Origin: Pseudomonadota bacterium
Lineage (GTDB): Bacteria; Pseudomonadota; Alphaproteobacteria; Rhizobiales; CAJQND01
Assembly: GCA_039180225.1 (NCBI GenBank)
Contig: JBCDDQ010000002.1
Location: 1-47,990 of the forward strand
Direction of reading: 5' to 3'
Length of the DNA stretch: 47,990 nucleotides
The position numbers and the translations under genes were made by a program. The notes under the pieces were generated by a model. That model was given only the letters and a program-made list of their open reading frames with translations. It searched no databases and had not been told where the DNA came from. This document shows, piece by piece, positions 7,144-26,103 of the stretch (position 1 is its first letter; each line of letters begins with the position of its first letter).

Positions 7144-7973
7144 GGGTCGATCCGCATTCCTTCACGGACCACAACGGAGTTTGGATAGATGGCCTGGGCC
7201 TGGCGCTCAACGGATCGCAGGGTTTCGTCATCATGCGAGGGGCGGTGGTGGAAAATGCAATACTGGCCCGCATTGGCGGCCTCGCACAGGCGGATACCCT
7301 CCTGCCAGGTGGAATGGCCGAAGCCCACAAATTGCTCAAACACGCTATCGCAATAGGTGGCATCATAGATCACTACATCCGCGTCCTGGATTAGCTTCAA
7401 AATGTTCTGATCCGGCTTGCCAGGCACATGCTCGGTATCAGTGACGTAGCATATAGACTTTCCGCCATACTCGACCCGATAGCCCATGGCGCCGCCAGGA
7501 TGGTTCAAAGCTATCGTCTTGATGGTAACGCCTCCAGGCAAATCAAATTGATTGCCGGGCAGAAAATCGTGATATCCCACTCTGGCCTTAAAGATCTCCG
7601 GCGGCACCGGAAAGAACGGCGGAGACATGAACTTTTTGACAACGGATTTGGTGGTGGCGTCGTCATCATCTGAGTGGCCGGACCAAATATCGATCTGAAC
7701 CTCGTCGGACATGAACGGGGCGAAAAACGGCAATCCACCAATATGGTCATAGTGGGTGTGGGTGAAGAACAGATCCAGGCGGGTGATACCCTCTTGCTTC
7801 AGAAGCGTTCCAAGGGGATGAATACCAGAGCCCGCGTCGAACACGAGCACGCGTCCGCCGCAGCGAATCTCAACACATGGTGTATTTCCGCCAAACTCGA
7901 CTGTGTTTGGACCTGGCGTCGGAAGAGAACCTCTCACCCCCCAAAACCTTACAAAAAATTCGTCGTTGGCCAT
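7140..7973 (-). CDS. MBL-fold metallo-hydrolase (candidate class II-type cyclic nucleotide phosphodiesterase)
   Basis: N-terminus FVRFWGVRGSLPTPG and HxHxDH motif FFTHTHYDHIGG (nt 7743-7760). Its stop overlaps the cyclase start (ATGA at 7140-7143). Confidence 0.8.
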   Translation of the reverse strand: MANDEFFVRFWGVRGSLPTPGPNTVEFGGNTPCVEIRCGGRVLVFDAGSGIHPLGTLLKQEGITRLDLFFTHTHYDHIGGLPFFAPFMSDEVQIDIWSGHSDDDDATTKSVVKKFMSPPFFPVPPEIFKARVGYHDFLPGNQFDLPGGVTIKTIALNHPGGAMGYRVEYGGKSICYVTDTEHVPGKPDQNILKLIQDADVVIYDATYCDSVFEQFVGFGHSTWQEGIRLCEAANAGQYCIFHHRPSHDDETLRSVERQAQAIYPNSVVVREGMRIDP

Positions 7974-8153
7974 CTTCTCCCTAGTGCCCGTACACGATCA
8001 GCCCCATCTCTCCCAGCTGACGTGCCACCCTAGCATCAAAACCGGTGCGTGTGGCAACTGGTTCACCAACGTGACGCGCTATTGTGAGAAACCATGAGTT
8101 GTGCCTTATAGCAACCTTTGCCCGGTTGCTTCACAGTTGAAAAGGTCTGTTAG

Positions 8154-9470
8154 ATGAGAATTGCCATGATTGGCTCCGGCTATGTGGGTTTGGTCTCCGG
8201 AGCGTGTTTTTCTGAGTTCGGTCACTCGGTTGATTGCATCGACCATGATCCAGAGAAGGTGAGCCGGCTCAAGGCGGGCGAAGTACCGATTTACGAACCG
8301 GGACTAGACACCCTCATCGCCACCAACACCAAGGCTGGAAGGCTCTTCTTTTCCTCCGACCTGGAAGGGGCGGTGAAGGCTGCAGATATTATCTTTATTG
8401 CCGTGGGCACGCCGGGCCGGCGCTATGGCGGGGCCGTGGACATGAAGTTCGTGGAGACTGCGGCCCTGGAAATTGCAGCGGCGCTCGACGGCTTCAAGGT
8501 CATTGTCACCAAGTCCACCGTGCCGGTGGGCACCGCGCGGCGCCTTGAGGGCCTCATAAAGGAAACGCGGCCGGATGCGGATTTTGCCATGGTGTCAAAC
8601 CCGGAATTCCTGCGCGAAGGCTCCGCCATTGAAGATTTCATGCGGCCGGACAAGATCGTTGTAGGTGTTGAAGATGAGCGTGCTGAGGAGCTGATGCGGC
8701 AGGCCTACCGTCCGCTGTCTTTGCGCGATGCGCCTCTGATCATGACCGATTTTGAGACCTCAGAGCTGATCAAGTATGCCAACAACGCCTTCCTGGCTAT
8801 GCGTATCAGCTTCATGAACGAGCTTTCCGACCTCTGTGAAGCGGTTGGGGCCAATGTGAGCGAAACGGCACAAGCGCTCGGAAAAGACCGGCGCATCGGA
8901 CCTTACTTCCTACACCCCGGGCCGGCTTATGGCGGCTCCTGCTTTCCCAAGGACACACGCGCGTTGGCGGCCATCGGCCAGTCCAATGGCAGCAGCATGA
9001 CGTCGATCGAAACCACCATCAAAATCAATGAAGACCGCAAATTGAAGATGGTCGATAAGATTTGCGATGCCATGGGCGGCGATGTGAAGGGCAAGAAAAT
9101 TGCGGTTCTGGGGGTCAGCTTTAAGCCGAACACCGATGACATCCGCGAGGCGCCGGCCCTGGTGATCATTCCGGCTTTGCAGGAAAGGGGCGCAGAGATC
9201 GTGGCCCATGACCCGGTGGCCCGCAAGAATGCGGAAGCTGAGCTGAGCGATCTGGACTGGGCGGACGACCCCCTAGATGCGGTCGAAGGGGCTGATTGCC
9301 TGGTGATTTTGACCGAGTGGAATGCCTATCGCGGGCTCGACCTCAAGACGGTTGCAGGCCTTATGCGCAGCCACGTCCTGGTGGACTTGCGCAACATCTT
9401 CAACTTGACTGAGTTCGCCGATCTGCCCTTCTCCTATCATTCACTCGGTCGCAAAGTGATCACCCCATGA
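8154..9470 (+). CDS. ugd: UDP-glucose 6-dehydrogenase
   Basis: MRIAMIGSGYVGLVSGACF (NAD-binding GxGxxG), catalytic region GGSCFPKD, 438 aa. Confidence 0.92.
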   Translation: MRIAMIGSGYVGLVSGACFSEFGHSVDCIDHDPEKVSRLKAGEVPIYEPGLDTLIATNTKAGRLFFSSDLEGAVKAADIIFIAVGTPGRRYGGAVDMKFVETAALEIAAALDGFKVIVTKSTVPVGTARRLEGLIKETRPDADFAMVSNPEFLREGSAIEDFMRPDKIVVGVEDERAEELMRQAYRPLSLRDAPLIMTDFETSELIKYANNAFLAMRISFMNELSDLCEAVGANVSETAQALGKDRRIGPYFLHPGPAYGGSCFPKDTRALAAIGQSNGSSMTSIETTIKINEDRKLKMVDKICDAMGGDVKGKKIAVLGVSFKPNTDDIREAPALVIIPALQERGAEIVAHDPVARKNAEAELSDLDWADDPLDAVEGADCLVILTEWNAYRGLDLKTVAGLMRSHVLVDLRNIFNLTEFADLPFSYHSLGRKVITP

Positions 9471-9483
9471 CGGAGACTTCGCC

Positions 9484-10497
9484 ATGCGCACGCTTGTGAC
9501 CGGAGCGGCCGGCTTTATCGGCTATCATCTGGCGCGCCGGCTCATTGTTGAGGGGCACGACGTTGTCTGCCTGGACAACTTTTCCCACTATTACGACGTG
9601 AGCTTGAAACAGGCCCGCGCAGAGGAGCTGAAGCGTGCCTGCGATGTGGAGATCCTAAACCTGGACCTCACTGACGCCCCTGCGCTTTGGGCCCTCGTGC
9701 AAGAGCGTGCGCCTGAAATCGTCTATCATCTGGCCGCGCAGCCCGGCGTGCGCTACAGCCTGGAAGCGCCGCACACCTATGTGCAAAGCAATCTGACCGG
9801 CTTTGCCAACCTGTTGGAAGCCTGCCGCCAGACGCCGCCACGCCACCTGCTCTATGCCTCCTCAAGCTCGGTCTATGGGGCAAACCGGGCGCACCCTTCA
9901 AACGAGGATGGCCTGACCGACCATCCGCTTTCGCTTTATGCCGCTACGAAGAAAGCCAACGAGGCCCTCGCTCATAGCTACTCACACTTGTTCGATCTGC
10001 CCATGACGGGACTGCGGTTCTTTACGGTCTACGGAGAATGGGGACGTCCCGACATGGCCTTCTTCAAGTTCGCAGACGCCATGCGCGCAGGACGCACGAT
10101 CACCGTGCACAACCATGGCCGGATGAAGCGCGACTTCACCTATGTGGGCGACATCGTGGAGAGCCTCTTTCGGCTTATGCACAAAGCGCCTACGCCTGAC
10201 GCCGGCTGGCAATCGGCTGAGCCGAACTCCGGCACCAGCGGTGTTGCACCCTACCGGGTCCTCAACATCGGCAATGGCCAGCCAGAAGAACTGATGCGCT
10301 ACATCCGTGTGTTGGCGGAGGCCTTTGGCGTTGAGCCCAGCCTGGACATGGTGGGCATGCAGCCCGGCGAGGTTGAGGTGACCTGGGCCGATACCCAAGC
10401 GCTGGAAGCCTTGACCGGATTTCGCCCCCAGACGTCCATCGAAGACGGCATTGAGCGCTTCGCGCGCTGGCACATGACCCATTATCCGGACCTGTAA
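9484..10497 (+). CDS. NAD-dependent epimerase, UDP-glucuronate 4-epimerase type (LpsL-like)
   Basis: VTGAAGFIGYHLARRL Rossmann motif and SDR catalytic YAATKKANE (YxxxK). Starts 13 nt after ugd, the same pairing as the rkpK-lpsL genes of rhizobia. Confidence 0.85.
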   Translation: MRTLVTGAAGFIGYHLARRLIVEGHDVVCLDNFSHYYDVSLKQARAEELKRACDVEILNLDLTDAPALWALVQERAPEIVYHLAAQPGVRYSLEAPHTYVQSNLTGFANLLEACRQTPPRHLLYASSSSVYGANRAHPSNEDGLTDHPLSLYAATKKANEALAHSYSHLFDLPMTGLRFFTVYGEWGRPDMAFFKFADAMRAGRTITVHNHGRMKRDFTYVGDIVESLFRLMHKAPTPDAGWQSAEPNSGTSGVAPYRVLNIGNGQPEELMRYIRVLAEAFGVEPSLDMVGMQPGEVEVTWADTQALEALTGFRPQTSIEDGIERFARWHMTHYPDL

Positions 10498-10499
10498 CG

Positions 10500-12152
10500 T
10501 CACTCAGGCAGAACACTGACAGCGCGCGTGTAGACCGTTACATCCAGAGCTTTCTGCTTACCCTTCACCTGGATCCGTTCTGTTTGCCCCGTGCCGGCAG
10601 GGATGCTGGCGGCCGCTATGGTTGTCGCGGAAACGACCAGCTCGGCGCCAAACTGTTTGGTGGACCCCTCCAGGCGGCTGGCTGCATTGACCGTGTCCCC
10701 CAGAGCGGTGATGCGCTGGCTTGCACGGTTGCTCTGGGCAACACCCACCCGGCCCAGGATGGCCGACCCGGTGTGCATGCCAATACCGATACGCAGCGGT
10801 TCCGGCAGATCATGCGTCAGGCTCTTGTTCAGCGCACCCAAGACGCCCCCCATGGCCTTGGCAGCCCTCAACGCCGCATCAGCGCCTTTGGAGGCATCCT
10901 GGCCCATGCCGAATATGGCCATGATGCCATCGCCGATGAACTTGTCCACATAACCGTCAGAGTCCTCGATCGCTGCGCTCATCTGGCCGAGATACTGGTT
11001 GAGAATGAACACCACATCGTAGGGGTACTTGTTCTCCGACAGGGCCGTGAATCCCCTCAAATCGGCAAACATCAATGTGACTTCCTGCTCTACGCCCCAG
11101 GTGTACCGGTCGCTTGCCGTGGCATCGCGCGTCCTGACCCGATGGGCTGGCAGCAGAGTGGCCACGGAGATATCCTCTGTCGGGACCATCTGGCAGGCCA
11201 GACGTACATTGGCCGCCGCGCCCACCCTGTCCAGCACCCGTTGTTCCTCATCGGACGGGACCTCTAAACTCTCAAGGCCCTCCAGCACCCTGACCCGGCA
11301 GGTTGAGCACCGGGCCCGCCCGCCGCACACGGAGGCATGGGGGATGTTGTGGTTCCGGCTGATCTCCAACAGCGAGGCACCTTGTTCGGTCACCACATCC
11401 TCGCCGCCTGCGTAACTGACCCTGATTTGGGGTTTAAGGCGCCGCCGCCCCACCCAGACGAGCCGCAGCACAGCCGCCAGGCCAACCACTGCCAGCGCAC
11501 CCCAGGCGCCCCAGTCCAGGGCTTTCAGAATGAGCTCGACTTGCGCGGTCGTTAGAGGGTTTTCGAATTCGTACGTGGCTTCGTTCTCGCGGCCCGCCAC
11601 GGTGTATCCGGCATAGGCAAGAACAGGGATGAGAACCGCCACGCCAAACAACGGCCAAACAATGCGCTCGTACCATGGCTTCAGCCGCAGCCAAAAGTGT
11701 AGACCGATACAGGCATGAACCCAGACGAGCGTAACGAGAAACAGCAGCCGCCAGGCCTCTTTCGGCCAAACGCCAAAGAGCACGAACGAATAGTCCGTTT
11801 CCACGCCAAACAACTCGTGCGGCAACCGCGTGCCCAGCATATGGCGAAACAGGAAATAGGGAATGGCCAAACCGAAGACCAACTGCACCCCTTCCCAGGC
11901 CGTCATGCGAAGCGACCGGCGTGAGGCGAACTTGTAGAGCGCCAGTCCGATGTGAACCACCAAGGCCAATCCCAAAACAAGGCTGCCGGGCACTGAACGC
12001 GTGATGGCCACGCGGTAGAGGCGCACCTGTTCCATGGCGTCGAGGGAAATCAGTCCAACCGCGTGATTGAGCAAGTGGGTCAGCGCGAACGAAAACAGGA
12101 TGAGCCCGGAGATCAGGCGCAAACGATGCTGGCTGAAGCCGGCAAAGGTCAT
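10500..12152 (-). CDS. Multidomain class III cyclase: His-rich membrane domain + 2Fe-2S ferredoxin domain + cyclase domain
   Basis: aa 1-235 contain about 5-6 TM helices with conserved-looking His (THLLNH, VVHIGL, WVHACIGLHFW). aa 242-333 contain CGGRARCSTCRV...LACQ (C-x5-C-x2-C-x34-C, nt 11154-11429). aa 355-540 contain MFADLRGFT, DKFIGDGIMAIFG, ITALGDTVNAASRLE (nt 10533-11090). Confidence 0.85.
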   Translation of the reverse strand: MTFAGFSQHRLRLISGLILFSFALTHLLNHAVGLISLDAMEQVRLYRVAITRSVPGSLVLGLALVVHIGLALYKFASRRSLRMTAWEGVQLVFGLAIPYFLFRHMLGTRLPHELFGVETDYSFVLFGVWPKEAWRLLFLVTLVWVHACIGLHFWLRLKPWYERIVWPLFGVAVLIPVLAYAGYTVAGRENEATYEFENPLTTAQVELILKALDWGAWGALAVVGLAAVLRLVWVGRRRLKPQIRVSYAGGEDVVTEQGASLLEISRNHNIPHASVCGGRARCSTCRVRVLEGLESLEVPSDEEQRVLDRVGAAANVRLACQMVPTEDISVATLLPAHRVRTRDATASDRYTWGVEQEVTLMFADLRGFTALSENKYPYDVVFILNQYLGQMSAAIEDSDGYVDKFIGDGIMAIFGMGQDASKGADAALRAAKAMGGVLGALNKSLTHDLPEPLRIGIGMHTGSAILGRVGVAQSNRASQRITALGDTVNAASRLEGSTKQFGAELVVSATTIAAASIPAGTGQTERIQVKGKQKALDVTVYTRAVSVLPE

Positions 12153-12185
12153 AGGAGGCAGCGCCGTGCGGCAGGGCCTGGCGCC

Positions 12186-12653
12186 TTAAGTTCCTTTGGC
12201 ATCGAGCTGTTGGCGCACCTGGGACAATTCCGCGGTGGTCTTGCCCAAGCGTGCTGCCAACTCCCGCATCACCTCAACCGCCATATCAGGGAACTCTTTG
12301 ACGAGGCCTAAGAAATCTTCCTTCTTGATTTTAAGGGTTTGCAAATCCGACTTCGCTCGAATGGTTGCGGTTCGCGGCACATCACACAAAATAGCGATCT
12401 CGCCAATGAACGCGTTGTCGCCCAACACGGCCACCACGGTTTCTCCTTTGGGCGTGTTGACCACAACATCTGCCGCCCCTTTCATGATCACATAGGCGGC
12501 ATCGCCCTCATCGCCCTGGCGAAACACTTCCTGGTTCTCATCAAAGGCCAGGCGCTCAGAGGTGAACGCCAGGAGCTTCAGCTTTGACGGTTCAATCTGG
12601 GCAAACAGGGGGACGCGTCTCAGCATGTCGACTTCTTCTGACAGTGAGGACAT
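12186..12653 (-). CDS. Stand-alone cyclic nucleotide-binding (CNB/CAP-effector) domain protein
   Basis: 155 aa with VPLFAQIEPSKLKLLA, FRQGDEGDAAYVIMKG and phosphate-binding cassette FIGEIAILCDVPRTATIRA (nt 12354-12404). No HTH or other output domain follows. Confidence 0.85.
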   Translation of the reverse strand: MSSLSEEVDMLRRVPLFAQIEPSKLKLLAFTSERLAFDENQEVFRQGDEGDAAYVIMKGAADVVVNTPKGETVVAVLGDNAFIGEIAILCDVPRTATIRAKSDLQTLKIKKEDFLGLVKEFPDMAVEVMRELAARLGKTTAELSQVRQQLDAKGT

Positions 12654-12687
12654 GGTCCGGTTTCCTCCCTAATGGTTACCTTCGCAA

Positions 12688-15426
12688 TCAGGCGCTCGAC
12701 ACGAGCGTTGTGTAATGGCCGCCCTGCTCCAACAGATTGGCCGGCGTATCGTCTTCGGCAAGCGCACCTTTGTCAAACACCAGAACCCGCTTGAACGCTT
12801 CAGCAAACCGCGGCGCCTGCAAGACCCAGAACACGCCAAAGGGGTCTGATCCGTTTTCGCCGCCCGCCATCTCCAGCACACGCTCGATAATCCTTTGCTG
12901 CGTGCGGCTGTCGAGCGCTGTCAGGGCCCGGTTCACAATCAGTATATCGGGTTTTTTGACCAACGCACGCGCCAGCGACAGTTTCTGGCGCTGAGACACG
13001 TTAAGGCGTTTGCCGCCATTGCCCACGTTGAAGTTGAGGCCAACCTGGAACACCTCATCGCGCAGCTCAAGCTCATCCAGCACGTCATGAATGACGTCAC
13101 GGACCTTTTCTGGACCCTCAGCCACCCCATAGGCAACACGGCCCATCAGGATATTGTCCTGCAAGGACGCCGCGGGGTTGTAGACTTCCGGATCATAGAA
13201 CGCGATGGCGTCAGAGTGCTCCTCAGGCAGCCCTTCGCGGAACGCGCTGCGTGCTTCAAGGAGCTTGTTCTTCATATCATCATCAAGCAGACCAAAGCGG
13301 TGCTGCGGCTCCACATAATCGAACGGGAGACGCAGGAACATCTCTTGATCAGCCGGCGAAGCGTCCGTCAGCGACTGGGAGGCCGACCGGGCAAGAGCGG
13401 CTTCATATTCGGGGATCTCCTCGGAGGTCATGAAGCTCAAGCGCTCAAAGAACGGGTGGTCCGGCGGCAGGTCTTTGAAGAGCTCAGTGGCCGTTTCGGC
13501 AATCTTGTGCCCCATGTTAAAGAAGGCCTGATCCAGACCACACCTGCTCAAAACGGCGCGCACATAGGCGTTGCCCACCAGCTTCTCACGCTCAAAGGTC
13601 GGGCCTTGCGCGGTGCCGAACAGGAGGTTCTCGCCCACCGATGCCTGGAGGCTGTAGGAGTTTGGTTCAAACAGCTCCACGAGCTTTGAGAGCGCAGGGT
13701 CTTCCAGTCTTTGCCGCAAGGCCTTGCGGGCCTCAATAAACTTGGCTGCCAGCTCTGGGTCTTGCTCCGGATCAACCTGGCCTCTCAGACCGAGATCGAA
13801 CACGTCCTGGCGCAACTCAACCACATCCAACAGCTTCCTGGCCACTTCGTCGGCCTGGTTTGGATCCTCTGTGCCCAGTGCATCAAAGTCGAGCCACTCT
13901 GCTCTGATATCCAGATCGGTGTTGCCGGCGAGCGCCGCCTCGGCAATCTCCCAGGCACGCTCTTTGGGATCCACCTCTTCCGGCGCGCGTTCGCGCACGG
14001 GCTGGTGTTTGAGGCCATAGAACAAGGCGTCGCGGAAGCTGGTCTGCGGCAGATAGATGTCCGGCCCCACGTAGGCTGTGCGCCGGCCAGTGAGGGATTC
14101 ATGATGGTCGTCCAGGTTTTGCCCTTCCAGGCTGATCGACCCTGAGGTGGGCACTGTGATCCTGGCCATCACATCGGCCATGGTCTCAGCGCCTGAGTTG
14201 ACAGTGCCCACGGCGGCCACCTGTTCATCGGGGCCAAACTTGAAGGTCGCACTTTCAAGCAAGTTCGTCCCCGCGTCATCCACAACGCCGACCCGGGAGA
14301 CAGAGAAGCCCTCCTTGATGGCGGGCACCGGTCCTGCCGGCGGGGTCTGCAGCTCAGGCTCCATCATGTTGTCAGGCTGGAACTGCTCAATCACCTGGGT
14401 GTACTTGATTTGCACATCCAAACGCTGTTGGTCATAGGCGATGAGGTCCGCCACCGGCCCAGGCAGGTCCTTGTAGGCTGCAATCACAGCCACAAGCTGG
14501 CCAATGTCCAGATCACCGGTGATCACCAGGTACCCGCCAATCAGGTAGAACATGAACGGGGTCAACTGAGCCAGGAAGTTGTTGAGGAACTTGATGAAGA
14601 ACTTCCTCTGAAACAGTTCGTAACGGATGGCAAAGATGGTGCCGAGACGACTGGCAAGGTCTGCTCTTTCCCAGTTGGAGGTGTCGTTGGTGTGCACGTT
14701 GTTGATGCCGTCCACAACTTCGCCCACCCGGCCGGCGAGCGCGCGGGCGGTGAGCTGGCGACGCTTGCCCAAAATCAGCAACCGGCGGCGCAGGCGCGGA
14801 ATCAAAAACGCCTGCACCAGCACAATAGTGCCGGCGATGGCTCCCAGCCAAACGTCCTGAACCATGATGAACAGCATGGCCGTAAGTGCCTGTCCGCCCA
14901 GGAACACGGGCTGCACCAGCATGTCGCCGATAAAGCCACCCAACGGTTCCACTTCATCCTTGATCATCGTGGCCGCTTCCGGGGCTTTGATGCGCCTGAA
15001 ATAGGAGTTGGGGAACCGGAGGATGCGGTCAAGCAGCTGGTAGCGCAGGCGCCTCAACATGCGCTCTCCGAGCCGGCCCTTGTACGTGTTGATGTAGAAC
15101 TTGAAGAGCCCGTTGATGCAGACAAAACCCAAGAAGGTTGCGCACAAACAGAAAAGGAAGGATAGCTGACCCAGCTCGAAGCCGTTGAACAAAGTGACAG
15201 TTCCCGCGGAGGATATCCATGAGGGCACATCGAACGCAATTTGCAAAAACGGCTGAGTGGCCCCTTCTCCCTCAAACCCCTGGCCTTGGATCGGGCCATT
15301 GACAATGCGTTTGGGCAGATCAAGCGCCAGGAAATAGGGCACCATGGAGATCAAAATGATCGTCAAGATCCAGATCTGCTGCGCCCTCGTGTAACGCCAG
15401 ATGTATTTGAAAAGACTTGATTCCAT
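12688..15426 (-). CDS. ABC type-I-exporter-like protein (TMD + degenerate, expanded NBD); probable pseudo-ATPase
   Basis: 912 aa. N-terminal about 340 aa resemble a 6-TM ABC_membrane domain. The C-terminal NBD scaffold is recognisable (GPDEQVAAVGTVNSGAETMADVMAR; LNVSQRQKLSLARALVKKPDILIVNRALTALD) but the catalytic residues are replaced, and about 330 aa are inserted between the Q-loop and the signature. Confidence 0.8.
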   Translation of the reverse strand: MESSLFKYIWRYTRAQQIWILTIILISMVPYFLALDLPKRIVNGPIQGQGFEGEGATQPFLQIAFDVPSWISSAGTVTLFNGFELGQLSFLFCLCATFLGFVCINGLFKFYINTYKGRLGERMLRRLRYQLLDRILRFPNSYFRRIKAPEAATMIKDEVEPLGGFIGDMLVQPVFLGGQALTAMLFIMVQDVWLGAIAGTIVLVQAFLIPRLRRRLLILGKRRQLTARALAGRVGEVVDGINNVHTNDTSNWERADLASRLGTIFAIRYELFQRKFFIKFLNNFLAQLTPFMFYLIGGYLVITGDLDIGQLVAVIAAYKDLPGPVADLIAYDQQRLDVQIKYTQVIEQFQPDNMMEPELQTPPAGPVPAIKEGFSVSRVGVVDDAGTNLLESATFKFGPDEQVAAVGTVNSGAETMADVMARITVPTSGSISLEGQNLDDHHESLTGRRTAYVGPDIYLPQTSFRDALFYGLKHQPVRERAPEEVDPKERAWEIAEAALAGNTDLDIRAEWLDFDALGTEDPNQADEVARKLLDVVELRQDVFDLGLRGQVDPEQDPELAAKFIEARKALRQRLEDPALSKLVELFEPNSYSLQASVGENLLFGTAQGPTFEREKLVGNAYVRAVLSRCGLDQAFFNMGHKIAETATELFKDLPPDHPFFERLSFMTSEEIPEYEAALARSASQSLTDASPADQEMFLRLPFDYVEPQHRFGLLDDDMKNKLLEARSAFREGLPEEHSDAIAFYDPEVYNPAASLQDNILMGRVAYGVAEGPEKVRDVIHDVLDELELRDEVFQVGLNFNVGNGGKRLNVSQRQKLSLARALVKKPDILIVNRALTALDSRTQQRIIERVLEMAGGENGSDPFGVFWVLQAPRFAEAFKRVLVFDKGALAEDDTPANLLEQGGHYTTLVSSA

Positions 15427-15533
15427 TAGAAAATCGTCAACTCAGGTCAGCCCCCATACCTCGGCTGCTTACCCTTGCACAAAATGGGTAAGTCCGACAA
15501 TAAGCTAGCGCGGCCTTTTTCCGCCGAATGCCC

Positions 15534-16682
15534 TTAAGAACTAAGCTTCTCGGACAGTAAGGCGCGCAGAATTCGGGCGGACCGCTCAGCGCCGTTCAAG
15601 TCGCCTGCAGGTTCAGGGGCCGGGAGCGCCAGAGCTTCTGACATGGCCCGCGATAGCGTTGCTGCCGAAAGGTCGCGCTGATGCACGACCACAGCTCTTT
15701 TTTGCTTGGCGAGAATTTCGGCGCGCCGGGTTTGCTCGGTCTCCCCATCTGTGGAATAGGGCACCAGCACGGCACGGCAGCCCGCGCTTTGCAGGTCGGC
15801 CACGGTGTTATAGCCCGCCTGGGAGACGGAAACCTGCGCCAGCTTCATCAGGGCCGGTAAATCGGCTCTGAACCGTTCCAGGGTCACGAACGCAGGCAGC
15901 CGACCGCTTAATGCGCGAAACGTCTTTTCCGATAAGTTCGGTCCGGTCAGAACGAGCCACTTGCCGGAGGCAAAGTTAGGGTCCATGCGCGCGCCCAGAG
16001 CAGCTTCAAAGAGCTCGTCCCCGACGGCTCCGCCGCCTGCAGACACGATCACGTCGAACGCTTCACCGGCCTCCGTGTGCCCGCGCTCAGGCCCGACCCA
16101 GCCGGTATAGTGGAGCTTGGCGCTGATCAGGCCGGCCTCTGGAAAGCTCAAACTCAGCGGCGCGAAAGCCTCAGAACCGTGTACCAGGACGGCGTCGAAG
16201 TACTCCTCCACCAGCCGGCGGGTTTCGCTGATCCGCTTCGCTTTGCGGCCTTCTTGCAGGATGTCACGGATGGAGGCCGCAACCAAGGGGCGCCGCCGGG
16301 CGTTCCGCGACGCATCGAGCAGAGGCACCAGCTCGAACCGCATAATCCGGCGGGCAAACGGATAAGCCTCAATCAACAGGATGTCCGGTTCGTTCGCGGC
16401 GAACAGGTTGAGCAGCTCTGCCTTGCGCTCCGCCTTCAAAGCGTCGGTGACCGGGTTTCCTTCGCTGTCCACAAGGCTGCCAAAACCGGCCACGCCGGAC
16501 GACACCGCCGGCAGCTGAACGCATCTGGCGCCGCCCCAGTCGATACCTTCAAGCGGCTTCCCGCCATAAGCGATGGTCACCGAAAAGCCTGCCCTCACCA
16601 GGGCCCGCGCAATTCGCGACGAGCGCACAACATGCCCGATCCCAAGCAGGTGCTGCACATAGAACAGAACTTTGTGTGACAT
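15534..16682 (-). CDS. Glycosyltransferase, MurG-like GT-B fold (COG4671-type predicted glycosyl transferase)
   Basis: N-terminus VLFYVQHLLGIGHVVRSSRIARAL and C-terminal QAGYNTVADL...ETEQTRRAE resemble GT28/MurG motifs. The ORF track starts at a TTG (16685); I use the adjacent ATG at 16682, 3 nt after the upstream stop. Confidence 0.7.
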   Translation of the reverse strand: MSHKVLFYVQHLLGIGHVVRSSRIARALVRAGFSVTIAYGGKPLEGIDWGGARCVQLPAVSSGVAGFGSLVDSEGNPVTDALKAERKAELLNLFAANEPDILLIEAYPFARRIMRFELVPLLDASRNARRRPLVAASIRDILQEGRKAKRISETRRLVEEYFDAVLVHGSEAFAPLSLSFPEAGLISAKLHYTGWVGPERGHTEAGEAFDVIVSAGGGAVGDELFEAALGARMDPNFASGKWLVLTGPNLSEKTFRALSGRLPAFVTLERFRADLPALMKLAQVSVSQAGYNTVADLQSAGCRAVLVPYSTDGETEQTRRAEILAKQKRAVVVHQRDLSAATLSRAMSEALALPAPEPAGDLNGAERSARILRALLSEKLSS

Positions 16683-16685
16683 CAA

Positions 16686-17975
16686 TCAGGCGGCGCCCCG
16701 CAAGGGCTCAGCGCGCTCGGCGCCCGTCGGGTCAGCTGGCTCTCCCTCAAACAGCTGCATCAGCTGGTCGATACCACCCTCATAGCTAAACTCTGCACGC
16801 ACGCGCGCCTTTCCTGCTTCGCCAAGCTGTTCTCTCAACGCGGGAGTGCGGATGAGTTTTTCCAGAGCACTGGCCAATGCCTTGGGATCGTCCGGGGGCA
16901 CCAAGATGCCGTTCTCTCCGTCTCTCACCAGCTCCGGCACGCCGGAGACCGGTGTTGAGAGACAACTCAGCCCTTGGCTTTGGGCTTCCACCAAGACATT
17001 GGGCAAGCCATCTCTGTCTCCATTTGGCGCAATCCGGCAGGGCAGAATGAAAAGGTCTGATGACCGGTAGCGCTCAATCACTTCGGTCTGCGCCAGGGCG
17101 CCCAACCATTCTATGCGGTCGGTCAGCTTTAAGGCTTCTGCCTGGGCTTTCAGCTTGGGCAGAAGCTCGCCGCCGCCAATATGGCTCCAGCGCCAGTTCA
17201 GCTCAGGCGGCAGTAACGCCAGAGCGTCCAACAAAGTGTCGATACCCTTTTTCTGGACCGCACGGCCCACTGTGATAAGTCCCACCGGCGCACCGTCCTG
17301 TGCCCCATCAGGACGACCGTCGCGCTTGGGAGGGCCGGCAAAGCGCTTCAGGTCGATCCCATGATAGATCAACTTCACCTTGTCCGGCTCCGCACTTAGG
17401 GAGCGCAGATGATCGGCCCCATAGCGGGTGCACACACTGACCCAGCCGGTGCTGTTCAACTTCTCCGTCAGCTCCCAGTCTGGCGAGGTCCAAATGTCCT
17501 TGGCATGAGCCGAGCAGGTCCATGGCAGGCCTGTCATGAGAGACGTATAACGGGTGACCGAGGCGGGCGTGTGGATGAAGTGCGCGTGCAGCCAGCCCAC
17601 ATCTTGAGGGAGCTCGGCCGCCATCACCAAGGCTTGCCCGAACCGCCTGAAACGGTTGCGGCTAACATCGCGTTTAAGATCTTTCAGCCAGCATTTGAAC
17701 GCAGCTTTATATCCGGGCCGGCGGCGCACCTTCCACCAGCTCGCCAAAACCCGCAAAGGCGCATCGTGCAGATACTCCGGCAAGTAAGAAACGGGCGCCA
17801 CAATCTCCGCATGGATGGGATGCGTATCTGGATCATAGGGCTGGCGCAGTGAGATAATGCGAATGTCCATGCCCTGCAGTTCGAGCCCGCGAATCTCTTG
17901 CGCGATGAACGTTTCAGACAGTCTGGGGTAGCCCTTTAGAACAAATGCTACTGCCCTTTTCATGGGATCCCTCAT
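16686..17975 (-). CDS. Glycosyltransferase, GT4/group 1 (WcaL-like)
   Basis: N-terminus VAFVLKGYPRLSETFIAQEI and C-terminal DGLPNVLVEAQSQGLSCLSTPVSGVPELV (E-x7-E region). ATGA overlap with the upstream GT stop. An alternative ATG at 17963 is possible. Confidence 0.8.
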   Translation of the reverse strand: MRDPMKRAVAFVLKGYPRLSETFIAQEIRGLELQGMDIRIISLRQPYDPDTHPIHAEIVAPVSYLPEYLHDAPLRVLASWWKVRRRPGYKAAFKCWLKDLKRDVSRNRFRRFGQALVMAAELPQDVGWLHAHFIHTPASVTRYTSLMTGLPWTCSAHAKDIWTSPDWELTEKLNSTGWVSVCTRYGADHLRSLSAEPDKVKLIYHGIDLKRFAGPPKRDGRPDGAQDGAPVGLITVGRAVQKKGIDTLLDALALLPPELNWRWSHIGGGELLPKLKAQAEALKLTDRIEWLGALAQTEVIERYRSSDLFILPCRIAPNGDRDGLPNVLVEAQSQGLSCLSTPVSGVPELVRDGENGILVPPDDPKALASALEKLIRTPALREQLGEAGKARVRAEFSYEGGIDQLMQLFEGEPADPTGAERAEPLRGAA

Positions 17976-19198
17976 CCGCCGCCGGCAATCACTCTCAGCT
18001 CGGGGCGCGCGGGCCTTGCCAGGTGAGCTTCTACGATCTCGCCAATCTTCGTCAATCCATCAAGCGGCAGCCAACAACCTGCCTCAGACGGTCTTCGGCG
18101 CTTGGGCAAGGCTTCTATTGCATCAGCCATCTTTTGCGGGTCCGAGGCCAACTCTGGCACCATCATCTTGATCACGCCCAGCTCATCAGCCCGGCGGGCC
18201 CTGATCAACTGTTCCTGGCGTGGTTCGGTACGGGGCACCACAATGGCGCGCTTGTCGAACGATAATATCTCACAGAAGGTGTTGTAGCCACCCATCCCGA
18301 TCAAACCCTTGGCATCTGTAATGAGGGTTTCAATCCGGTTGTCGAAGTCCATAAGCTGGATTTTAGGCTTGCCCTCCGCGCGTCGCAAAATGGCCTCGCG
18401 TTCTTGCGTGGGCATAAACGGGCCGAGAATGATCACCGCCGGATGCAGATTGTAGCTCTTGTTTGCCTCGGCGTGTTCGTAGGCGGCCAGCACATTGTTC
18501 ACCACATCCGAGCCGTCTCCCCCGCCTCCGGTGGTGACGAGAACATAGTCACCGGCAACGGCGTTGATGGCACCTTTGGTTTCAGCAGGTTGATGGCGCT
18601 CCAGGTAACCGGTGTAGGTGATGCGCTGATTAAGCGCCTTGGAGGTTTTGAGGCCGCTCAACGGGTTCCAAAACCCCGGCGGACCGTAGACCCAGATATC
18701 ATCATAAAGCTCGTCGAGCTTTGGCAGAATGCCGCGGCGCTTCCACTCTTTCTTCAACAGGTGCGGGGCGTCCATCACATCCCTCAGACCCACCACGAGC
18801 GTGCAGTCCTGGTCCTTGAGATATCTCAGCGTGTCCTCAATCTCGCCATGCAGACCGAGCGGTTCTTTGTCCACGATGAACATGTCAGGATTGAAGTGTT
18901 CCGCCGTGTGGCGGATGATCGACCGGCGCATCTCCAGAGTTTCCTCCAGATCAATGTGCTCATCGAGAGATGTGTACTGTCCGTTGTGCAGCTTGATCAC
19001 ACTGGGGATCTTCACGAAGTCCACCCGTGCTTTGAAATCAAACGCCCCGGCAATGGGTGAGCCGGAAATGATCAGGACGTTCAAGCCTTTGAACTGCTCC
19101 ACCAGAGCATGCGCAATGGTGCGGCAGCGGCGCAGATGGCCCAAGCCAAAAGTGTCGTGGCTATACATCAGGACGCGCGCGTGCTCGAGCCGTTTCAT
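17972..19198 (-). CDS. Glycosyltransferase, MurG-like GT-B fold (COG4671-type), paralogue of 15534-16682
   Basis: N-terminus RVLMYSHDTFGLGHLRRCRTIAHAL and C-terminal GMGGYNTFCEIL...EPRQEQLIRARR. SD-like AAAGGTGA lies 5 nt upstream of the ATG. Confidence 0.7.
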   Translation of the reverse strand: MKRLEHARVLMYSHDTFGLGHLRRCRTIAHALVEQFKGLNVLIISGSPIAGAFDFKARVDFVKIPSVIKLHNGQYTSLDEHIDLEETLEMRRSIIRHTAEHFNPDMFIVDKEPLGLHGEIEDTLRYLKDQDCTLVVGLRDVMDAPHLLKKEWKRRGILPKLDELYDDIWVYGPPGFWNPLSGLKTSKALNQRITYTGYLERHQPAETKGAINAVAGDYVLVTTGGGGDGSDVVNNVLAAYEHAEANKSYNLHPAVIILGPFMPTQEREAILRRAEGKPKIQLMDFDNRIETLITDAKGLIGMGGYNTFCEILSFDKRAIVVPRTEPRQEQLIRARRADELGVIKMMVPELASDPQKMADAIEALPKRRRPSEAGCWLPLDGLTKIGEIVEAHLARPARPELRVIAGGG

Positions 19199-19295
19199 CG
19201 GTCACCTTTCTGCAATCGCCAATGTAGCAATTTGCCTCTTGTCAGCCGCCCGCTCGTCTTATGCCATATATGGGGCCCGCAGGGAACAGCAGCAA

Positions 19296-19315
19296 CCATG
19301 GCAGAGCGGCCATGG
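19296..19315 (-). terminator. Weak hairpin 18 nt downstream of the peptide-permease stop
   Basis: CCATGGC (19296-19302) and GCCATGG (19309-19315) form a 7-bp perfect inverted repeat with a 6-nt loop. On the minus strand it is followed by TTGCTGCTGTT, only moderately T-rich. Confidence 0.3.
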
Positions 19316-19333
19316 CCAAAATGTGTTCCAACG

Positions 19334-20524
19334 TTATTTGTAAGGATCTGCCGCATCGCGCAGACCATCTCCAAAGAAATTGAAGGCCAAAATAACCAGG
19401 ATCACCGGCACCACAGGCAGCAAAAGCCAAGGATAAAGCGCCACCACATTGATGTTCTGCGCTTCTTTCAGCAGAACGCCCCAACTTGTGATCGGCGGCC
19501 TCAGGCCCAAACCCAAGAAGCTAAGGGCGGTCTCGCCCAACACCATGGTGGGGATGGTGATCGTTGCGGAGGCGATCAGGTGGCTCATAAAGCCCGGCAC
19601 CAGATGGCGTCCGATGATGCGTTTGGGGTTTGCACCCATCAATTGCGCGGCCACCACATAGTCTTCCTCACGCAAGGCCAACAGCTTGGAGCGCACGGCC
19701 CTCGCCAGCCCGGTCCAGTCTAATATGCCTAAAATTATCGTAATGCCGAAATAGACAATCAACGGTCCCCAGGTCGACGGCATGATGGCCGCAAGCGCCA
19801 TCCACAAGGGGATGGCGGGGAGCGATTGGAGCACTTCGATCATGCGCTGAACGATCATGTCGAAGAGGCCGCCATAATAGCCGGCAAGGCCGCCGATCAC
19901 GATGCCCAGAACGAAGCTTATGGTGACCCCAAGCAGACCAATGGTCAGCGAAATCCGCGCCCCATAGATGATGCGTGACAGCATATCCCGGCCCAGTCGG
20001 TCTGTACCCAAGAGGAAGAGCGTGCCGTCTTTCGGCGGGCAAACGATGTGGAAATCCCCCTCAAACAGTCCCCAGAACATGTACTTGTCGCCGGAGCAGA
20101 AGAAGCGGATCTTTTTCACGTCCGATTTGTTTTCGGTGTACTCCCGCTTGAGCGTTTCCATGTTCAGCTTGTAGTTGGCCCCGTAGACGAAGGGCCCCAC
20201 GAAACTGCCTTCATGGAACAGATGCACTGCCTGAGGCGCAGAGAAGATCCGGTCCGAATGGCGGGTGTGCAGGTTGTATGGCGCCAGCACTTCGCTGAAC
20301 AGCGTACTGATATACAGGAGAAGCAGAAAGATGCCCGAAGCCACAGCCACCTTGTGCTGTTTGAACTTCCACCACATCAGCTTGGTCTGAGAGGCCAGGT
20401 AGACCTTTTCCTGAGCCGGGGTCAGGCGCTCCACCGAACGCGGATCGAACGGTTTGTCCGAAACATAATGAGGCATTTCTGCGCCCGGCGCAGGCAGCGG
20501 GCTTTCTGGACGGCCATTACTCAT
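19334..20524 (-). CDS. Peptide ABC transporter permease (DppC/OppC/YejE-like)
   Basis: 396-aa multi-TM protein with a long N-terminal extension (LTPAQEKVYLASQTKLMWWKFKQHK) typical of YejE-type permeases. ATGA-type overlap with the upstream permease. Confidence 0.85.
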   Translation of the reverse strand: MSNGRPESPLPAPGAEMPHYVSDKPFDPRSVERLTPAQEKVYLASQTKLMWWKFKQHKVAVASGIFLLLLYISTLFSEVLAPYNLHTRHSDRIFSAPQAVHLFHEGSFVGPFVYGANYKLNMETLKREYTENKSDVKKIRFFCSGDKYMFWGLFEGDFHIVCPPKDGTLFLLGTDRLGRDMLSRIIYGARISLTIGLLGVTISFVLGIVIGGLAGYYGGLFDMIVQRMIEVLQSLPAIPLWMALAAIMPSTWGPLIVYFGITIILGILDWTGLARAVRSKLLALREEDYVVAAQLMGANPKRIIGRHLVPGFMSHLIASATITIPTMVLGETALSFLGLGLRPPITSWGVLLKEAQNINVVALYPWLLLPVVPVILVILAFNFFGDGLRDAADPYK

Positions 20525-21519
20525 TTTGTGGCGCCTCCAGCCAGACGTATGCGCGGATCAAGAATGGCCAGCGCGATGTCAGACACCAGAACGCCAATCA
20601 CTGTGAGCGTGGCCAGGAACATCAGGAACGAACCGGCCAGATACATGTCCTGGCTGGCCAGAGCGCTCAAAAGCAGCGGGCCTGTTGTCTCCAGCGACAA
20701 GACCACCGCCACGATCTCAGCGCCGGAGATGATCGACGGAAGAATGGACCCAATGTCTGAGATGAAGAAGTTCAACGACATGCGCAGTGGATATTTTACG
20801 AGCGCCTTGAAGGGCCTTAAACCCTTGGCCTTGGCCGTGACCACGTACTGCTTCTGCAGCTCGTCCAAAAGGTTGGCGCGCAGGCGGCGGATCATTGCGG
20901 CGGTGCCCGACGTGCCGATCACCACCACAGGGATCCAGAGGTGCTCCATGATCGACTTGAACTTGTCCCAGCTCATGGGCTTGTCGAGATATTCCGGATC
21001 CATGAGGTGCCCGACCGAGGTGCCGAACCATATGTTCGCCAAGTAGAGCATCACCAACGCCAATAGAAAATTGGGGATGGCGAGCCCTAAGAGCCCGACA
21101 AAAGTCAGCCCGTAATCGCTCCAGCTGTACTGGTGGGTGGCGGAGTAAATGCCGATGGGGAAAGCCACGATCCAGGTGAAGATGATCGTGACGAACGACA
21201 AGAGGATGGTCAGCCAAAGGCGCTCGCCCACCACATCGGTTACCGGCAACTGGTACTCGAACGAATAGCCGAAATCGCCCACCAACATGCCGCCGAGCCA
21301 GTGGAAATAGCGCAGCACCACAGGCTTGTCGAAGCCATATTCCTCACGCAGAAACGCTATCTGGGTTTCGTCCACCTTCTCGCCCTGCTGTTTCAGCTCG
21401 GCGATGTAGGTCTCCAGATAATCACCCGGCGGGAGTTCGATAATGAAGAAGATCAATGCTGAGATGATCAGCAAAGTCGGGATCATTATCAAGACACGCC
21501 TGATGATATAGGCAAACAT
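20521..21519 (-). CDS. Peptide ABC transporter permease (DppB/OppB/YejB-like)
   Basis: N-terminus MFAYIIRRVLIMIPTLLIISALIFFIIELPPGDY is the canonical start of the DppB family. Confidence 0.88.
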   Translation of the reverse strand: MFAYIIRRVLIMIPTLLIISALIFFIIELPPGDYLETYIAELKQQGEKVDETQIAFLREEYGFDKPVVLRYFHWLGGMLVGDFGYSFEYQLPVTDVVGERLWLTILLSFVTIIFTWIVAFPIGIYSATHQYSWSDYGLTFVGLLGLAIPNFLLALVMLYLANIWFGTSVGHLMDPEYLDKPMSWDKFKSIMEHLWIPVVVIGTSGTAAMIRRLRANLLDELQKQYVVTAKAKGLRPFKALVKYPLRMSLNFFISDIGSILPSIISGAEIVAVVLSLETTGPLLLSALASQDMYLAGSFLMFLATLTVIGVLVSDIALAILDPRIRLAGGATK

Positions 21520-21522
21520 GGC

Positions 21523-25322: not shown

Positions 25323-25455
25323 GTACCCAGTGAAACGGCAGGGCCCGAAGGAAACGGCTCCTGACCGGCACTCCTCCCACTCAACGAATGCAACGGCAGT
25401 TTGCTTTTACGGTGCCTGAACCAACAGTGCAATCGGCTTGAGCGGCAAAACGCAA

Positions 25456-25481
25456 ATTTTCCCGCCAAACGACGGGAAAAT
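25456..25481 (-). terminator. Rho-independent terminator candidate downstream of the L,D-transpeptidase gene
   Basis: ATTTTCCCG (25456-25464) and CGGGAAAAT (25473-25481) form a 9-bp perfect stem with an 8-nt loop. On the minus strand the 3' arm is followed by TTGCGTTTTGCC. Confidence 0.55.
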
Positions 25482-25514
25482 CTGGAACTGTGACCAGTAT
25501 ATCTCAGTTGTCCG

Positions 25515-25961: not shown

Positions 25962-26103
25962 TGTACTGCGCCCCTACTACGCTAATTATACTTACCAGCA
26001 AACCACACGGACAGGTTTAGCCGTGGGTTCGTCTCTAGCCCCAACTCGAAAGTCTGAGATACATGAAAGCCCAGTTTACCCGAATGGGCAAGCCCTGAAT
26101 TGA

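Follow-up and report, generated by a model that had tools for sequence, protein, structure and literature searches.

Cyclic di-GMP (c-di-GMP) gates polysaccharide secretion in the BcsA-PilZ, Alg44, PelD and BgsA systems. Membrane domains of the ATP-binding cassette (ABC) exporter type also occur without canonical ATP-driven pumping: SbmA/BacA has no nucleotide-binding domain (NBD), and in SUR and CFTR one or more ATP sites remain competent, with cAMP acting through PKA. The closest precedent for a cyclic-nucleotide-binding (CNB) domain that controls an ABC exporter is HetC of Nostoc PCC 7120, in which a domain with the fold that binds cyclic mononucleotides (cNMPs) is N-terminal on a type IV exporter and is needed for function; HetC also has a C39 peptidase, cannot do without its ATPase glutamate, and was found to bind ppGpp (PMC10986499). 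Here we describe a locus in a 47,990-nucleotide stretch, referred to as the window (positions 1-47,990 of the forward strand of contig JBCDDQ010000002.1, assembly GCA_039180225.1), from a Pseudomonadota bacterium (Rhizobiales; CAJQND01). At its centre a 912-aa protein with the fold of an ABC exporter and none of the motifs for ATP hydrolysis (the ABC-like protein) is encoded beside a 155-aa CNB protein. Together they constitute an uncharacterised, cNMP-coupled pseudo-ABC module that is widespread, mis-annotated and relevant to symbiosis.

The locus has relatives in rhizobia. The R. etli opt operon, made up of an importer, two redA genes and redB, is reported to affect oligopeptide use and symbiosis, its mutants being cited for reduced symbiotic nitrogen fixation (Vos et al. 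2007, Environ Microbiol 9:1665). The published view of the opt-redA-redB locus is of an oligopeptide-uptake operon accompanied by glycosyltransferases (GTs). The operon is also said to have affected bacitracin and ampicillin sensitivity and osmotolerance. A tblastn search against pRL11 of R. johnstonii/leguminosarum 3841 (NC_008384.1) finds ten shared genes in the same order at 48-73% identity, and orthologous loci are present on S. meliloti pSymB and a Mesorhizobium plasmid. The window shares with R. leguminosarum the order CNB, ABC-like, redAh, redB, redA, optC, optB, optA, optD, which there continues into cyaA and a sugar dehydrogenase; the cyclase of the window, of the Fer2 type, lies at the opposite end of the cluster, and its dehydrogenase is of another kind. 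The pRL genes were mapped from gene order and descriptions, with names from the insertion-sequencing (INSeq) table cited below. An earlier sequence-only reading of this DNA had known of no characterised system with this composition. The region corresponds to the opt-redA-redB locus of R. etli and R. leguminosarum and is not wholly uncharacterised. The searchable literature, which returned nothing specific on redA/redB in Rhizobium, nor on cNMP binding, ABC proteins and polysaccharide together in Rhizobium, gives no account of the dead ATPase, of its pairing with the CNB protein or of a link to cNMPs.

The loss of ATPase residues from the 912-aa protein, first noted in this one sequence, extends to all 83 orthologues, taken from related loci, that we aligned. 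The Walker-A Lys is retained in none of the 83, its place being taken by Ala, Gly, Thr or Ser followed by Glu or Asp, and the Walker-B Asp position is Asn in all but one, with Arg or Lys, and never Glu, at the next position, that of the catalytic Glu. Neither the Q-loop Gln nor the H-loop His occurs, and the LSGGQ signature is replaced by GGKRLxxxQRQK, so that the protein lacks every feature by which an ATP-driven ABC transporter is recognised (Walker A GxxGxGK[ST], Walker B hhhhDE, Q-loop Gln, H-loop His and LSGGQ). Since this degeneracy is itself conserved, the gene is not a decaying pseudogene. Judged by its residues, canonical ATP hydrolysis is impossible, and the annotation 'ABC transporter ATP-binding protein' is wrong.

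The exporter fold is found by Pfam, AlphaFold2 (AF2) and Foldseek alike. The AF2 model, with a predicted local distance difference test score (pLDDT) of 82 and a predicted TM-score (pTM) of 0.75, has six long transmembrane (TM) helices, a small periplasmic hairpin and an NBD. Its Foldseek matches are TmrAB, MsbA, TM287/288 and PCAT1 (probability 1.0, TM-score normalised to target 0.5-0.58), in agreement with a PDB profile search; ABCB1/4/11 are also among the best Foldseek and PDB sequence matches. Scores against individual NCBIfam models lie far below their cut-offs (TIGR03796, 131.6 bits versus 853; MsbA, 125.5 versus 602; glucan exporter, 85.5 versus 733; PglK, 60.4 versus 1000), placing the protein outside the MsbA, NdvA, PglK, HepA and NHLM exporter equivalogs. 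The Pfam ABC_tran match covers profile positions 2-80 only, and in NCBIfam the two ends of the NBD are hit by separate matches, about 250 residues apart. This insert is not of foreign origin: it is made up of two further copies of the stretch that runs from the Q-loop strand through the helical subdomain, which is thus present three times in all; repeats 2 and 3 align by hhalign with a probability of 97.7% (E 1.6e-12), and the motif 'strand-P-x-Y-x-[QA]-[AT]S-x-x-[DE]N[IL]L-x-G ... VLxxxxLxxxVFxxGL' recurs three times at aa ~450-800, with the signature-like motif following the last copy only. Mean column identity is 0.77 in the transmembrane domain (TMD) versus 0.56-0.62 in the NBD, which is unusual for an ABC exporter, and rises to 0.84-0.86 in TM2-intracellular loop 1 (ICL1) and in TM5-6.

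The CNB protein had been read as lacking an output domain, and Pfam indeed finds cNMP_binding only (residues 36-120) and no helix-turn-helix. It lacks the C-terminal helix-turn-helix that characterises CRP/FNR proteins, and its NCBIfam CRP match spans positions 15-138 of the 214-position model, scoring 56.7 bits against a cut-off of 266. The annotation of its orthologues as 'FNR/CRP regulator' is wrong, no DNA-binding domain being predicted. The phosphate-binding cassette, 'GEIAILCDVPRTATIRA', has the pattern G-E-x-A...R-[ST]-A, in which G84 and R94-T95-A96 are present in 83 of 83 orthologues and E85 in 79. By these residues the protein appears to be a ligand-competent CNB domain (PF00027), and its best PDB sequence relatives are the CNB domains of PKG and PKA-R.

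Sensor and pseudo-ABC protein are found together throughout. A species scan (one genome per species) returned at least 580 matching stretches, 80 loci of which were fetched and retained for counts, made by tblastn of the window proteins against them; the proteins are conserved at 50-97% identity across these loci. The CNB gene lies downstream of the ABC-like gene on the same strand in 79 of 79 testable loci (the 80th is cut off by the end of its contig), with a median gap of 93 nucleotides (nt). Full-length representatives of the family fall into two size classes, and in roughly a fifth the CNB domain is fused at the C-terminus: Pfam finds C-terminal cNMP_binding in all nine representatives of 1010-1085 aa that were tested (P0130, P0135, P0164, P0191, P0208, P0209, P0211, P0225 and P0231), and the Ruegeria conchae plasmid homologue (L083:12001-15096) is likewise fused. 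Some fused members retain the Walker-A Lys or the Walker-B Asp-Glu and none retains the Q- or H-loop; the NBD of the window's subfamily is the most degenerate of the family. Fusion that recurs and adjacency that never varies argue strongly, on comparative grounds, for a physical partnership of sensor and pseudo-NBD. The defining module of the locus is an ABC-exporter-fold protein without ATP-hydrolysis motifs together with a CNB subunit, always adjacent or fused. In R. johnstonii pRL11 a RelE/ParE toxin gene and a small upstream partner are inserted directly after the CNB gene (L081:15294-16045).

The family is large. Full-length relatives of the ABC-like protein at 52-97% identity come from Hyphomicrobiales isolates (Rhodoligotrophos) and metagenome bins, and a search of 1.84 billion representatives with the insert (aa 480-745, window 13192-13989) recovers 818 at E<=1e-3, each a cluster at 50% identity, and 170 at E<=1e-30.

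Comparison with characterised systems delimits what is new. Like the type IV (formerly type I) exporters MsbA, PglK, NdvA/ChvA, PCAT1 and TmrAB, the ABC-like protein combines ABC_membrane with ABC_tran, a predicted 6-TM topology and long intracellular helices; unlike them, its family has lost every catalytic motif, has a triplicated helical subdomain (about 250 additional aa), is more conserved in the TMD than in the NBD, and has an obligate CNB partner or fusion. A CNB fold attached to or encoded beside a type IV exporter is shared with HetC and with bacteriocin exporters of the TIGR03797/TIGR03896 type, but here the CNB domain, C-terminal or on a protein of its own, goes with a dead ATPase and no peptidase. 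The CNB protein matches TIGR03896 weakly (30 bits versus 161) and the best NCBIfam models of the ABC-like protein are TIGR03796 and TIGR03797; at 30 versus 161 and 132 versus 853 bits, membership in these bacteriocin-exporter families is excluded. The resemblance to c-di-GMP-gated secretion is one of concept, namely a messenger receptor on a glycan-releasing membrane machine with messenger-making enzymes nearby, whereas here there would be a cyclic mononucleotide, a CNB domain rather than a PilZ or GGDEF I-site, an ABC-exporter fold rather than a GT2 synthase, and no processive synthase. As described, SbmA/BacA, SUR and CFTR also have an ABC-exporter-type membrane domain without canonical ATP-driven pumping, and CFTR is ultimately controlled by cAMP; here, unlike in SUR and CFTR, degeneration affects both sites of the presumed homodimer, and the proposed complex includes the cNMP sensor itself. 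The S. meliloti ABC exporter MsbA2 is reported to be encoded beside GTs for an unknown polysaccharide, to be important for symbiosis, and to be deleterious to lose only when the upstream GTs are intact (PMC12239276); in our case the GT4 (redB) mutant is itself nodule-defective.

The pair lies within a larger conserved unit. The sequence-only reading had described an array of six minus-strand genes running head to tail, and all six open reading frames (ORFs), their domain calls (Pfam) and their junctions were recovered at the same positions: an ATGA overlap between GT28a and GT4 (17972-17975), then gaps of 107, 34 and 33 nt. GT28b starts with ATG at 16682, 3 nt past the GT4 stop, although the longest ORF begins one codon earlier with TTG (16685). 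None of the six proteins fits a characterised NCBIfam equivalog. As a unit, however, the array was drawn too narrowly: the six genes form the centre of a conserved island of about 16 genes and about 21 kb (window 3933-25322), which adds an importer, a second cyclase, a metallo-beta-lactamase (MBL)-fold hydrolase, a UDP-glucose dehydrogenase, an epimerase, and a further GT4 with a conserved partner. They are the core of this island, which is found mainly in Hyphomicrobiales. The dehydrogenase and epimerase genes, on the plus strand, converge on the Fer2 cyclase gene on the minus strand. Features are listed in Table 1.

Table 1. Features of the island in the window and their counterparts on R. 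leguminosarum 3841 pRL11.
Feature	Window position	Strand	Evidence	pRL11 counterpart
Second GT4	3933-5033	+	Pfam	
Conserved partner of second GT4, 244 aa; NCBI orthologue name 'polysaccharide deacetylase family'	5030-5764	+	Mesorhizobium annotation	
Second membrane class III cyclase, 460 aa, variant catalytic residues	5761-7143	-	Pfam Guanylate_cyc 8.3e-5	
MBL-fold hydrolase, RNase Z / phosphodiesterase type	7140-7973	-	Pfam Lactamase_B_2 5.5e-22	
UDP-glucose 6-dehydrogenase	8154-9470	+	Pfam; TIGR03026 nucleotide-sugar dehydrogenase 445 bits	
NAD-dependent sugar epimerase, UDP-GlcA-4-epimerase-like	9484-10497	+	Pfam	
Fer2 cyclase, 550 aa: membrane / 2Fe-2S / class III adenylate cyclase, lineage-variable accessory	10500-12152	-	Pfam Fer2 1.2e-9 + Guanylate_cyc 4.7e-19	
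CNB protein, 155 aa, stand-alone cyclic-nucleotide-binding	12186-12653	-	Pfam cNMP_binding 1e-20	pRL110046, annotated 'FNR/CRP regulator'
ABC-like protein, 912 aa, 6-TM type IV exporter fold, degenerate NBD	12688-15426	-	Pfam ABC_membrane 1.3e-15 + partial ABC_tran 1.9e-9	pRL110047, annotated 'permease of ABC exporter'
Insert in NBD of ABC-like protein, ~250 aa (aa 487-740), family signature	13207-13968	-	hhalign	
GT28b, MurG-like GT-B glycosyltransferase, 382 aa (383 from TTG)	15534-16682 (16685)	-	Pfam Glyco_tran_28_C 9.6e-12; synteny	pRL110048, redAh
GT4 glycosyltransferase, 429 aa	16686-17975	-	Pfam Glycos_transf_1 7e-34	pRL110049, redB
GT28a, MurG-like GT-B glycosyltransferase, 408 aa	17972-19198	-	Pfam Glyco_tran_28_C 7.3e-9; synteny	pRL110050, redA
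Opp/PepT-family ABC importer, directly upstream of GTs	19334-25322	-	Pfam, NCBIfam	pRL110051-54, optC, B, A, D (optDABC)
Importer permease	19334-20524	-		
Importer permease	20521-21519	-		
Importer SBP_bac_5	21523-23430	-		
Importer fused double ATPase	23427-25322	-		
Cyclase cyaA				pRL110055
Nucleotide-sugar dehydrogenase				pRL110056

Identification of the GTs was correct at the level of domains, with Pfam finding Glyco_tran_28_C twice and a GT4. Only the C-terminal GT28 domain of the two MurG-like proteins, the nucleotide-sugar-binding half, is matched; GT28b scores 37.3 bits against the MurG equivalog cut-off of 250 (TIGR01133) and GT28a has no murG match. A PDB sequence search found no relative of GT28a and a weak MurG match for GT28b (1.9e-5) that does not indicate a product, and a literature search on COG4671 found nothing. 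The triad GT28a-GT4-GT28b is present in 65 of the 73 loci with enough upstream sequence and collinear in 63, and is rearranged yet retained in others, including L089; the redB-type GT4 is about 58-61% identical in most of the 80 loci. Other parts of the island recur less uniformly: at least one importer component at >=50% identity in 62 of 80 loci, and the second GT4 with its partner of ~250 aa in 42 fetched loci. Some loci contain genes that are absent from the window, namely, in 34, an S-adenosylmethionine (SAM)-dependent methyltransferase gene that is read from the opposite strand and separates GT28b from the ABC-like gene (for example L084:12039-12695 (-) and L082:13052-13726 (-)) and a DUF3095 protein in 24, from Mesorhizobium and others (for example L084:19028-20191). 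In S. meliloti ml46 pSymB (L082), each of the two MurG-like GTs has an orthologue whose match is broken into two pieces and that lacks a coding-sequence annotation (9426-10620 and 11898-13029); they are frameshifted pseudogenes or assembly errors.

A nucleotide-sugar dehydrogenase also recurs, as two non-orthologous types about 27% identical, one in the window and the other in Rhizobium (pRL110056), Sinorhizobium and Mesorhizobium. This recurrence, with the epimerase of the window, suggests that the product of the cluster contains uronic acid. A PF14099 polysaccharide lyase lies beside the cyclase of the cluster in six loci (L082:2100-3068, L014, L015, L017, L023 and L045), and this family includes glucuronan and heparin lyases. 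The genes for glucuronan biosynthesis in S. meliloti are reported to be unknown (PMC10180729). We regard glucuronan as a weak lead only, as the lyase is confined to these six loci and no processive synthase is present.

Cyclases accompany the module in several forms. The Fer2 cyclase had been taken for a redox-type membrane class III cyclase, and both domains are present; 'redox-type' rests on Fer2 and on four Cys (C276, C282, C285 and C320, in the pattern C-x5-C-x2-C...C) that are invariant in 11 orthologues. The class III residues D364, K404, D408, D486, N489 and R493 are invariant in the same 11, and we take D364 and D408 to bind metal, K404 and D486 to select the substrate, and N489 and R493 to stabilise the transition state, the Lys/Asp pair indicating ATP. 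By this count of residues the enzyme looks catalytically competent. It adjoins the CNB gene only in L001, L014 and L027, however, and is nearby in a few other loci, so that the redox signal that had been proposed as the input is lineage-specific and the Fer2 cyclase is accessory rather than core. The second cyclase has the sequence 'GPAVNLSAKLE', with Pro for the base-specifying Asp/Thr and Lys for the transition-state Arg, and may be weakly active or regulatory; its orthologues are in L001, L009, L010, L012, L013, L016, L018 and L032. In R. johnstonii 3841 and S. meliloti a third type opens the island, upstream of the importer genes and just beyond the 10-kb flanks of Rhizobium-type loci; in Mesorhizobium it directly precedes the importer, which there sits about 8 kb downstream. 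A class III cyclase ORF of some type is present in at least 36 of 84 loci, even with 10-kb flanks, and at least three non-orthologous types occur in or at the edge of the cluster. Such non-orthologous replacement argues that local cNMP synthesis is selected, rather than a particular input signal.

An MBL hydrolase is found in 41 of 80 loci, often directly after the CNB gene. That of the window matches NCBIfam 'cyclic nucleotide-degrading phosphodiesterase' weakly (2e-9), as well as RNase Z, and is a candidate cNMP phosphodiesterase. An Apyc1-family MBL gene (5192-5971) precedes a fused ABC-CNB gene on the metagenomic contig L087; similarity of the window MBL to it is at the level of motifs only, and we rejected orthology with Apyc1.

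Orthologues in R. leguminosarum have nodule phenotypes. In the INSeq study of Wheatley et al. 2020 in pea nodules (bioRxiv 10.1101/2020.05.07.082560), which scores genes as essential (ES) or defective (DE), the CNB gene pRL110046 is DE in the rhizosphere and ES in nodule bacteria and bacteroids, the ABC-like gene pRL110047 is ES in nodule bacteria and DE in bacteroids, redB (pRL110049) is ES in both, and the dehydrogenase gene pRL110056 is DE in nodule bacteria and ES in bacteroids; optA and optD are advantaged in rhizosphere and root. The dehydrogenase gene pRL110056 also matters for root colonisation (PMC11103875). The expectation that mutants in the cluster share a phenotype is borne out by the sensor and the ABC-like protein, as well as by one GT and the dehydrogenase, and fails for the cyclase and the two MurG-like GTs. 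Together with synteny (79 of 79 loci for sensor and ABC-like protein, 65 of 73 for the triad, three or more cyclase types) and CNB fusion, this common nodule defect makes the functional linkage of writer, reader, pseudo-ABC protein and GTs, as first proposed, well supported.

We propose the following model. The 912-aa protein would form a homodimeric exporter-like conduit, the degenerate NBDs of which no longer use ATP; instead, a cyclic nucleotide from local class III cyclases would bind the CNB subunit, which would then switch them. In the window these cyclases are the membrane/2Fe-2S cyclase and the second membrane cyclase. The ligand is probably cAMP, because the cyclase has the ATP-specifying Lys/Asp pair. 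The switch would gate, not energise, the passage or hand-over of an acidic, uronic-acid-containing glycoconjugate, presumably assembled at the inner membrane by GT28a-GT4-GT28b with UDP-uronic acids supplied through the adjacent dehydrogenase and epimerase. The MBL hydrolase, as the candidate phosphodiesterase, would end the signal, and the output would matter for rhizobial life inside nodules. Gating, flipping, and cAMP rather than cGMP or another ligand are what we infer, and we put the model forward tentatively, the chances being somewhat against its being right in its entirety. A bolder formulation, in which the pair is the first ABC-fold transporter operated by a cyclic mononucleotide, having discarded the ATP switch so that cAMP or cGMP on an NBD-docked CNB protein drives or licenses an acidic glycoconjugate across the inner membrane, we consider possible and on balance doubtful.

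Several observations weigh against this model. Distant ABC-CNB members, fused or with a separate CNB protein, occur without GT genes nearby (L083 from Ruegeria, L086, L087, L090, L091 and L092), which indicates that the basic function of the module is independent of the red GTs and weakens a mechanism in which it gates the product of those GTs; export of that product by the ABC-like protein, part of the original proposal, is accordingly not established. The methyltransferase gene on the opposite strand in 34 loci implies that the GTs and the ABC-like gene are on separate transcripts there, and a promoter and terminator scan of 7900-26200 gave counts equal to those of shuffled sequence, with no signal on operon structure. 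The cluster contains no priming transferase, polymerase or outer-membrane export component, and with a dead ATPase there is no evident energy source for export. The identity of the ligand is ambiguous, as the R-T-A cassette of the CNB protein is PKG-like and the adjacent cyclase has ATP-type residues; the cassette and the PKG-like best PDB relatives mean that the ligand may be cGMP, and since the CNB fold of HetC can bind ppGpp, it may not be a cNMP. An AF2 model of a fused ABC-CNB relative (pLDDT 80 overall) has a disordered linker (pLDDT ~30) and is uninformative on docking. Finally, redA, redAh, optC and cyaA are neutral in the INSeq data while redB is nodule-essential (10.1101/2020.05.07.082560); neutrality of the cyclase and the two MurG-like GTs is possibly due to redundancy.

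The GT-less members speak for an alternative in which the ABC-like/CNB pair is an autonomous cNMP-responsive module, either an efflux or homeostasis valve or a signal transducer with the cyclase and MBL hydrolase, and the red GTs are merely co-located or co-regulated in Hyphomicrobiales. Around such GT-less or distant genes lie a cyclase gene that overlaps the end of the fused ABC-CNB gene, and is thus translationally coupled to it (L086, metagenomic), the Apyc1-family phosphodiesterase that adjoins another fused member (L087) and an extra CNB protein (L088), and in the window itself writer, reader and candidate eraser surround the ABC-like gene. This neighbourhood favours a self-contained cNMP module that would have been recruited to a glycan pathway in Hyphomicrobiales and in L089 (divergent, of unknown taxon). 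Mere co-location sits poorly, however, with retention of the GT triad beside the pair in 65 of 73 loci despite rearrangements and with the nodule phenotype common to the ABC-like, CNB, redB and sugar-dehydrogenase orthologues, and a nucleotide valve alone, although compatible with the very high TMD conservation, does not explain it. We judge this alternative unlikely, while allowing it an appreciable share of the probability.

Loss of all catalytic ATPase motifs is also what would be expected of a non-transporting membrane scaffold or regulatory subunit, comparable to SUR in K-ATP channels, that recruits or controls the GT-B enzymes, with the CNB protein and cNMP setting GT activity. The extreme conservation of the cytoplasmic loops, TM2-ICL1 and TM5-6, and the large cytoplasmic surface offered by the triplicated helical subdomain, fit this idea. 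Against it stand the full 6-TM exporter architecture and periplasmic hairpin, which are kept, the family members without GTs, and the lack of direct evidence for GT binding; we consider it quite unlikely.

It is less probable still that the island serves cell-wall or peptide metabolism, the PepT-type importer taking up peptides or muropeptides and the MurG-like enzymes acting on lipid-linked precursors of the peptidoglycan type. The reported effects of the R. etli opt operon on oligopeptide use and symbiosis (Vos et al. 2007) and the MurG-like GT28 C-terminal domain agree with such a role, but the MurG likeness is confined to the nucleotide-sugar-binding half (37 versus 250 bits), and the uronic-acid sugar-nucleotide genes, second GT4 and deacetylase-like partner point to a glycan. 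The phenotypes diverge as well, opt mutants being advantaged or neutral and redB, ABC-like and CNB mutants nodule-defective.

A Pycsar-like anti-phage system, in which a cyclase and a cNMP-binding membrane effector damage the membrane on infection, is very improbable. PADLOC PycC models match both cyclases, Pycsar effector models match the CNB protein, and an Apyc1-family MBL lies beside one distant member; these matches reflect homology of domains and no more, and no defence model matches the ABC-like protein. Unlike in defence islands, synteny with sugar-metabolism genes is stable in at least 580 species stretches, the cyclase combines purine (Lys/Asp) specificity residues with sensor domains, and the reported phenotype is symbiotic fitness, and we rejected Pycsar membership on the domain-level matches, synteny and purine-type residues. 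Fortuitous juxtaposition of unrelated genes without shared function, on which the promoter and terminator scans are neutral, is scarcely credible, being contradicted by gene fusion, shared phenotypes and co-occurrence at 50% protein identity across several families.

Upstream of the island are a YkuD-like L,D-transpeptidase ORF (25515-25961, -), a DegT-family aminotransferase gene (26104-27345, -) and LutB/LutC-like genes (28996-31108, -), none of which is conserved with the cluster. A Clr/CRP box of the S. meliloti consensus (HGTYHCNNNNGRWACW) has a single match at 25322-25337 (-), abutting the start of the importer ATPase gene oppDF; 29% of shuffles give at least one match, and this one recurs only in the 97%-identical relative L001, so we rejected it as evidence.

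The module corrects two annotations, 'FNR/CRP regulator' and 'ABC transporter ATP-binding protein', and brings to notice a large, previously unremarked family (818 clusters at 50% identity, at least 580 species stretches) in which a dead yet conserved ATPase is always accompanied by a cyclic-nucleotide sensor, raising the mechanistic question of what substitutes for ATP. Rhizobia encode dozens of class III cyclases, and to our knowledge almost no non-transcriptional effectors of cAMP or cGMP have been found in them; the ABC-CNB pair is a concrete candidate for one. Because orthologues with nodule defects are present in tractable strains (R. leguminosarum 3841 pRL11 and S. meliloti pSymB), the hypothesis is immediately testable. 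Should the bolder formulation hold, the ABC-CNB pair would be the cNMP equivalent of polysaccharide secretion gated by c-di-GMP, needed by rhizobia in nodules.

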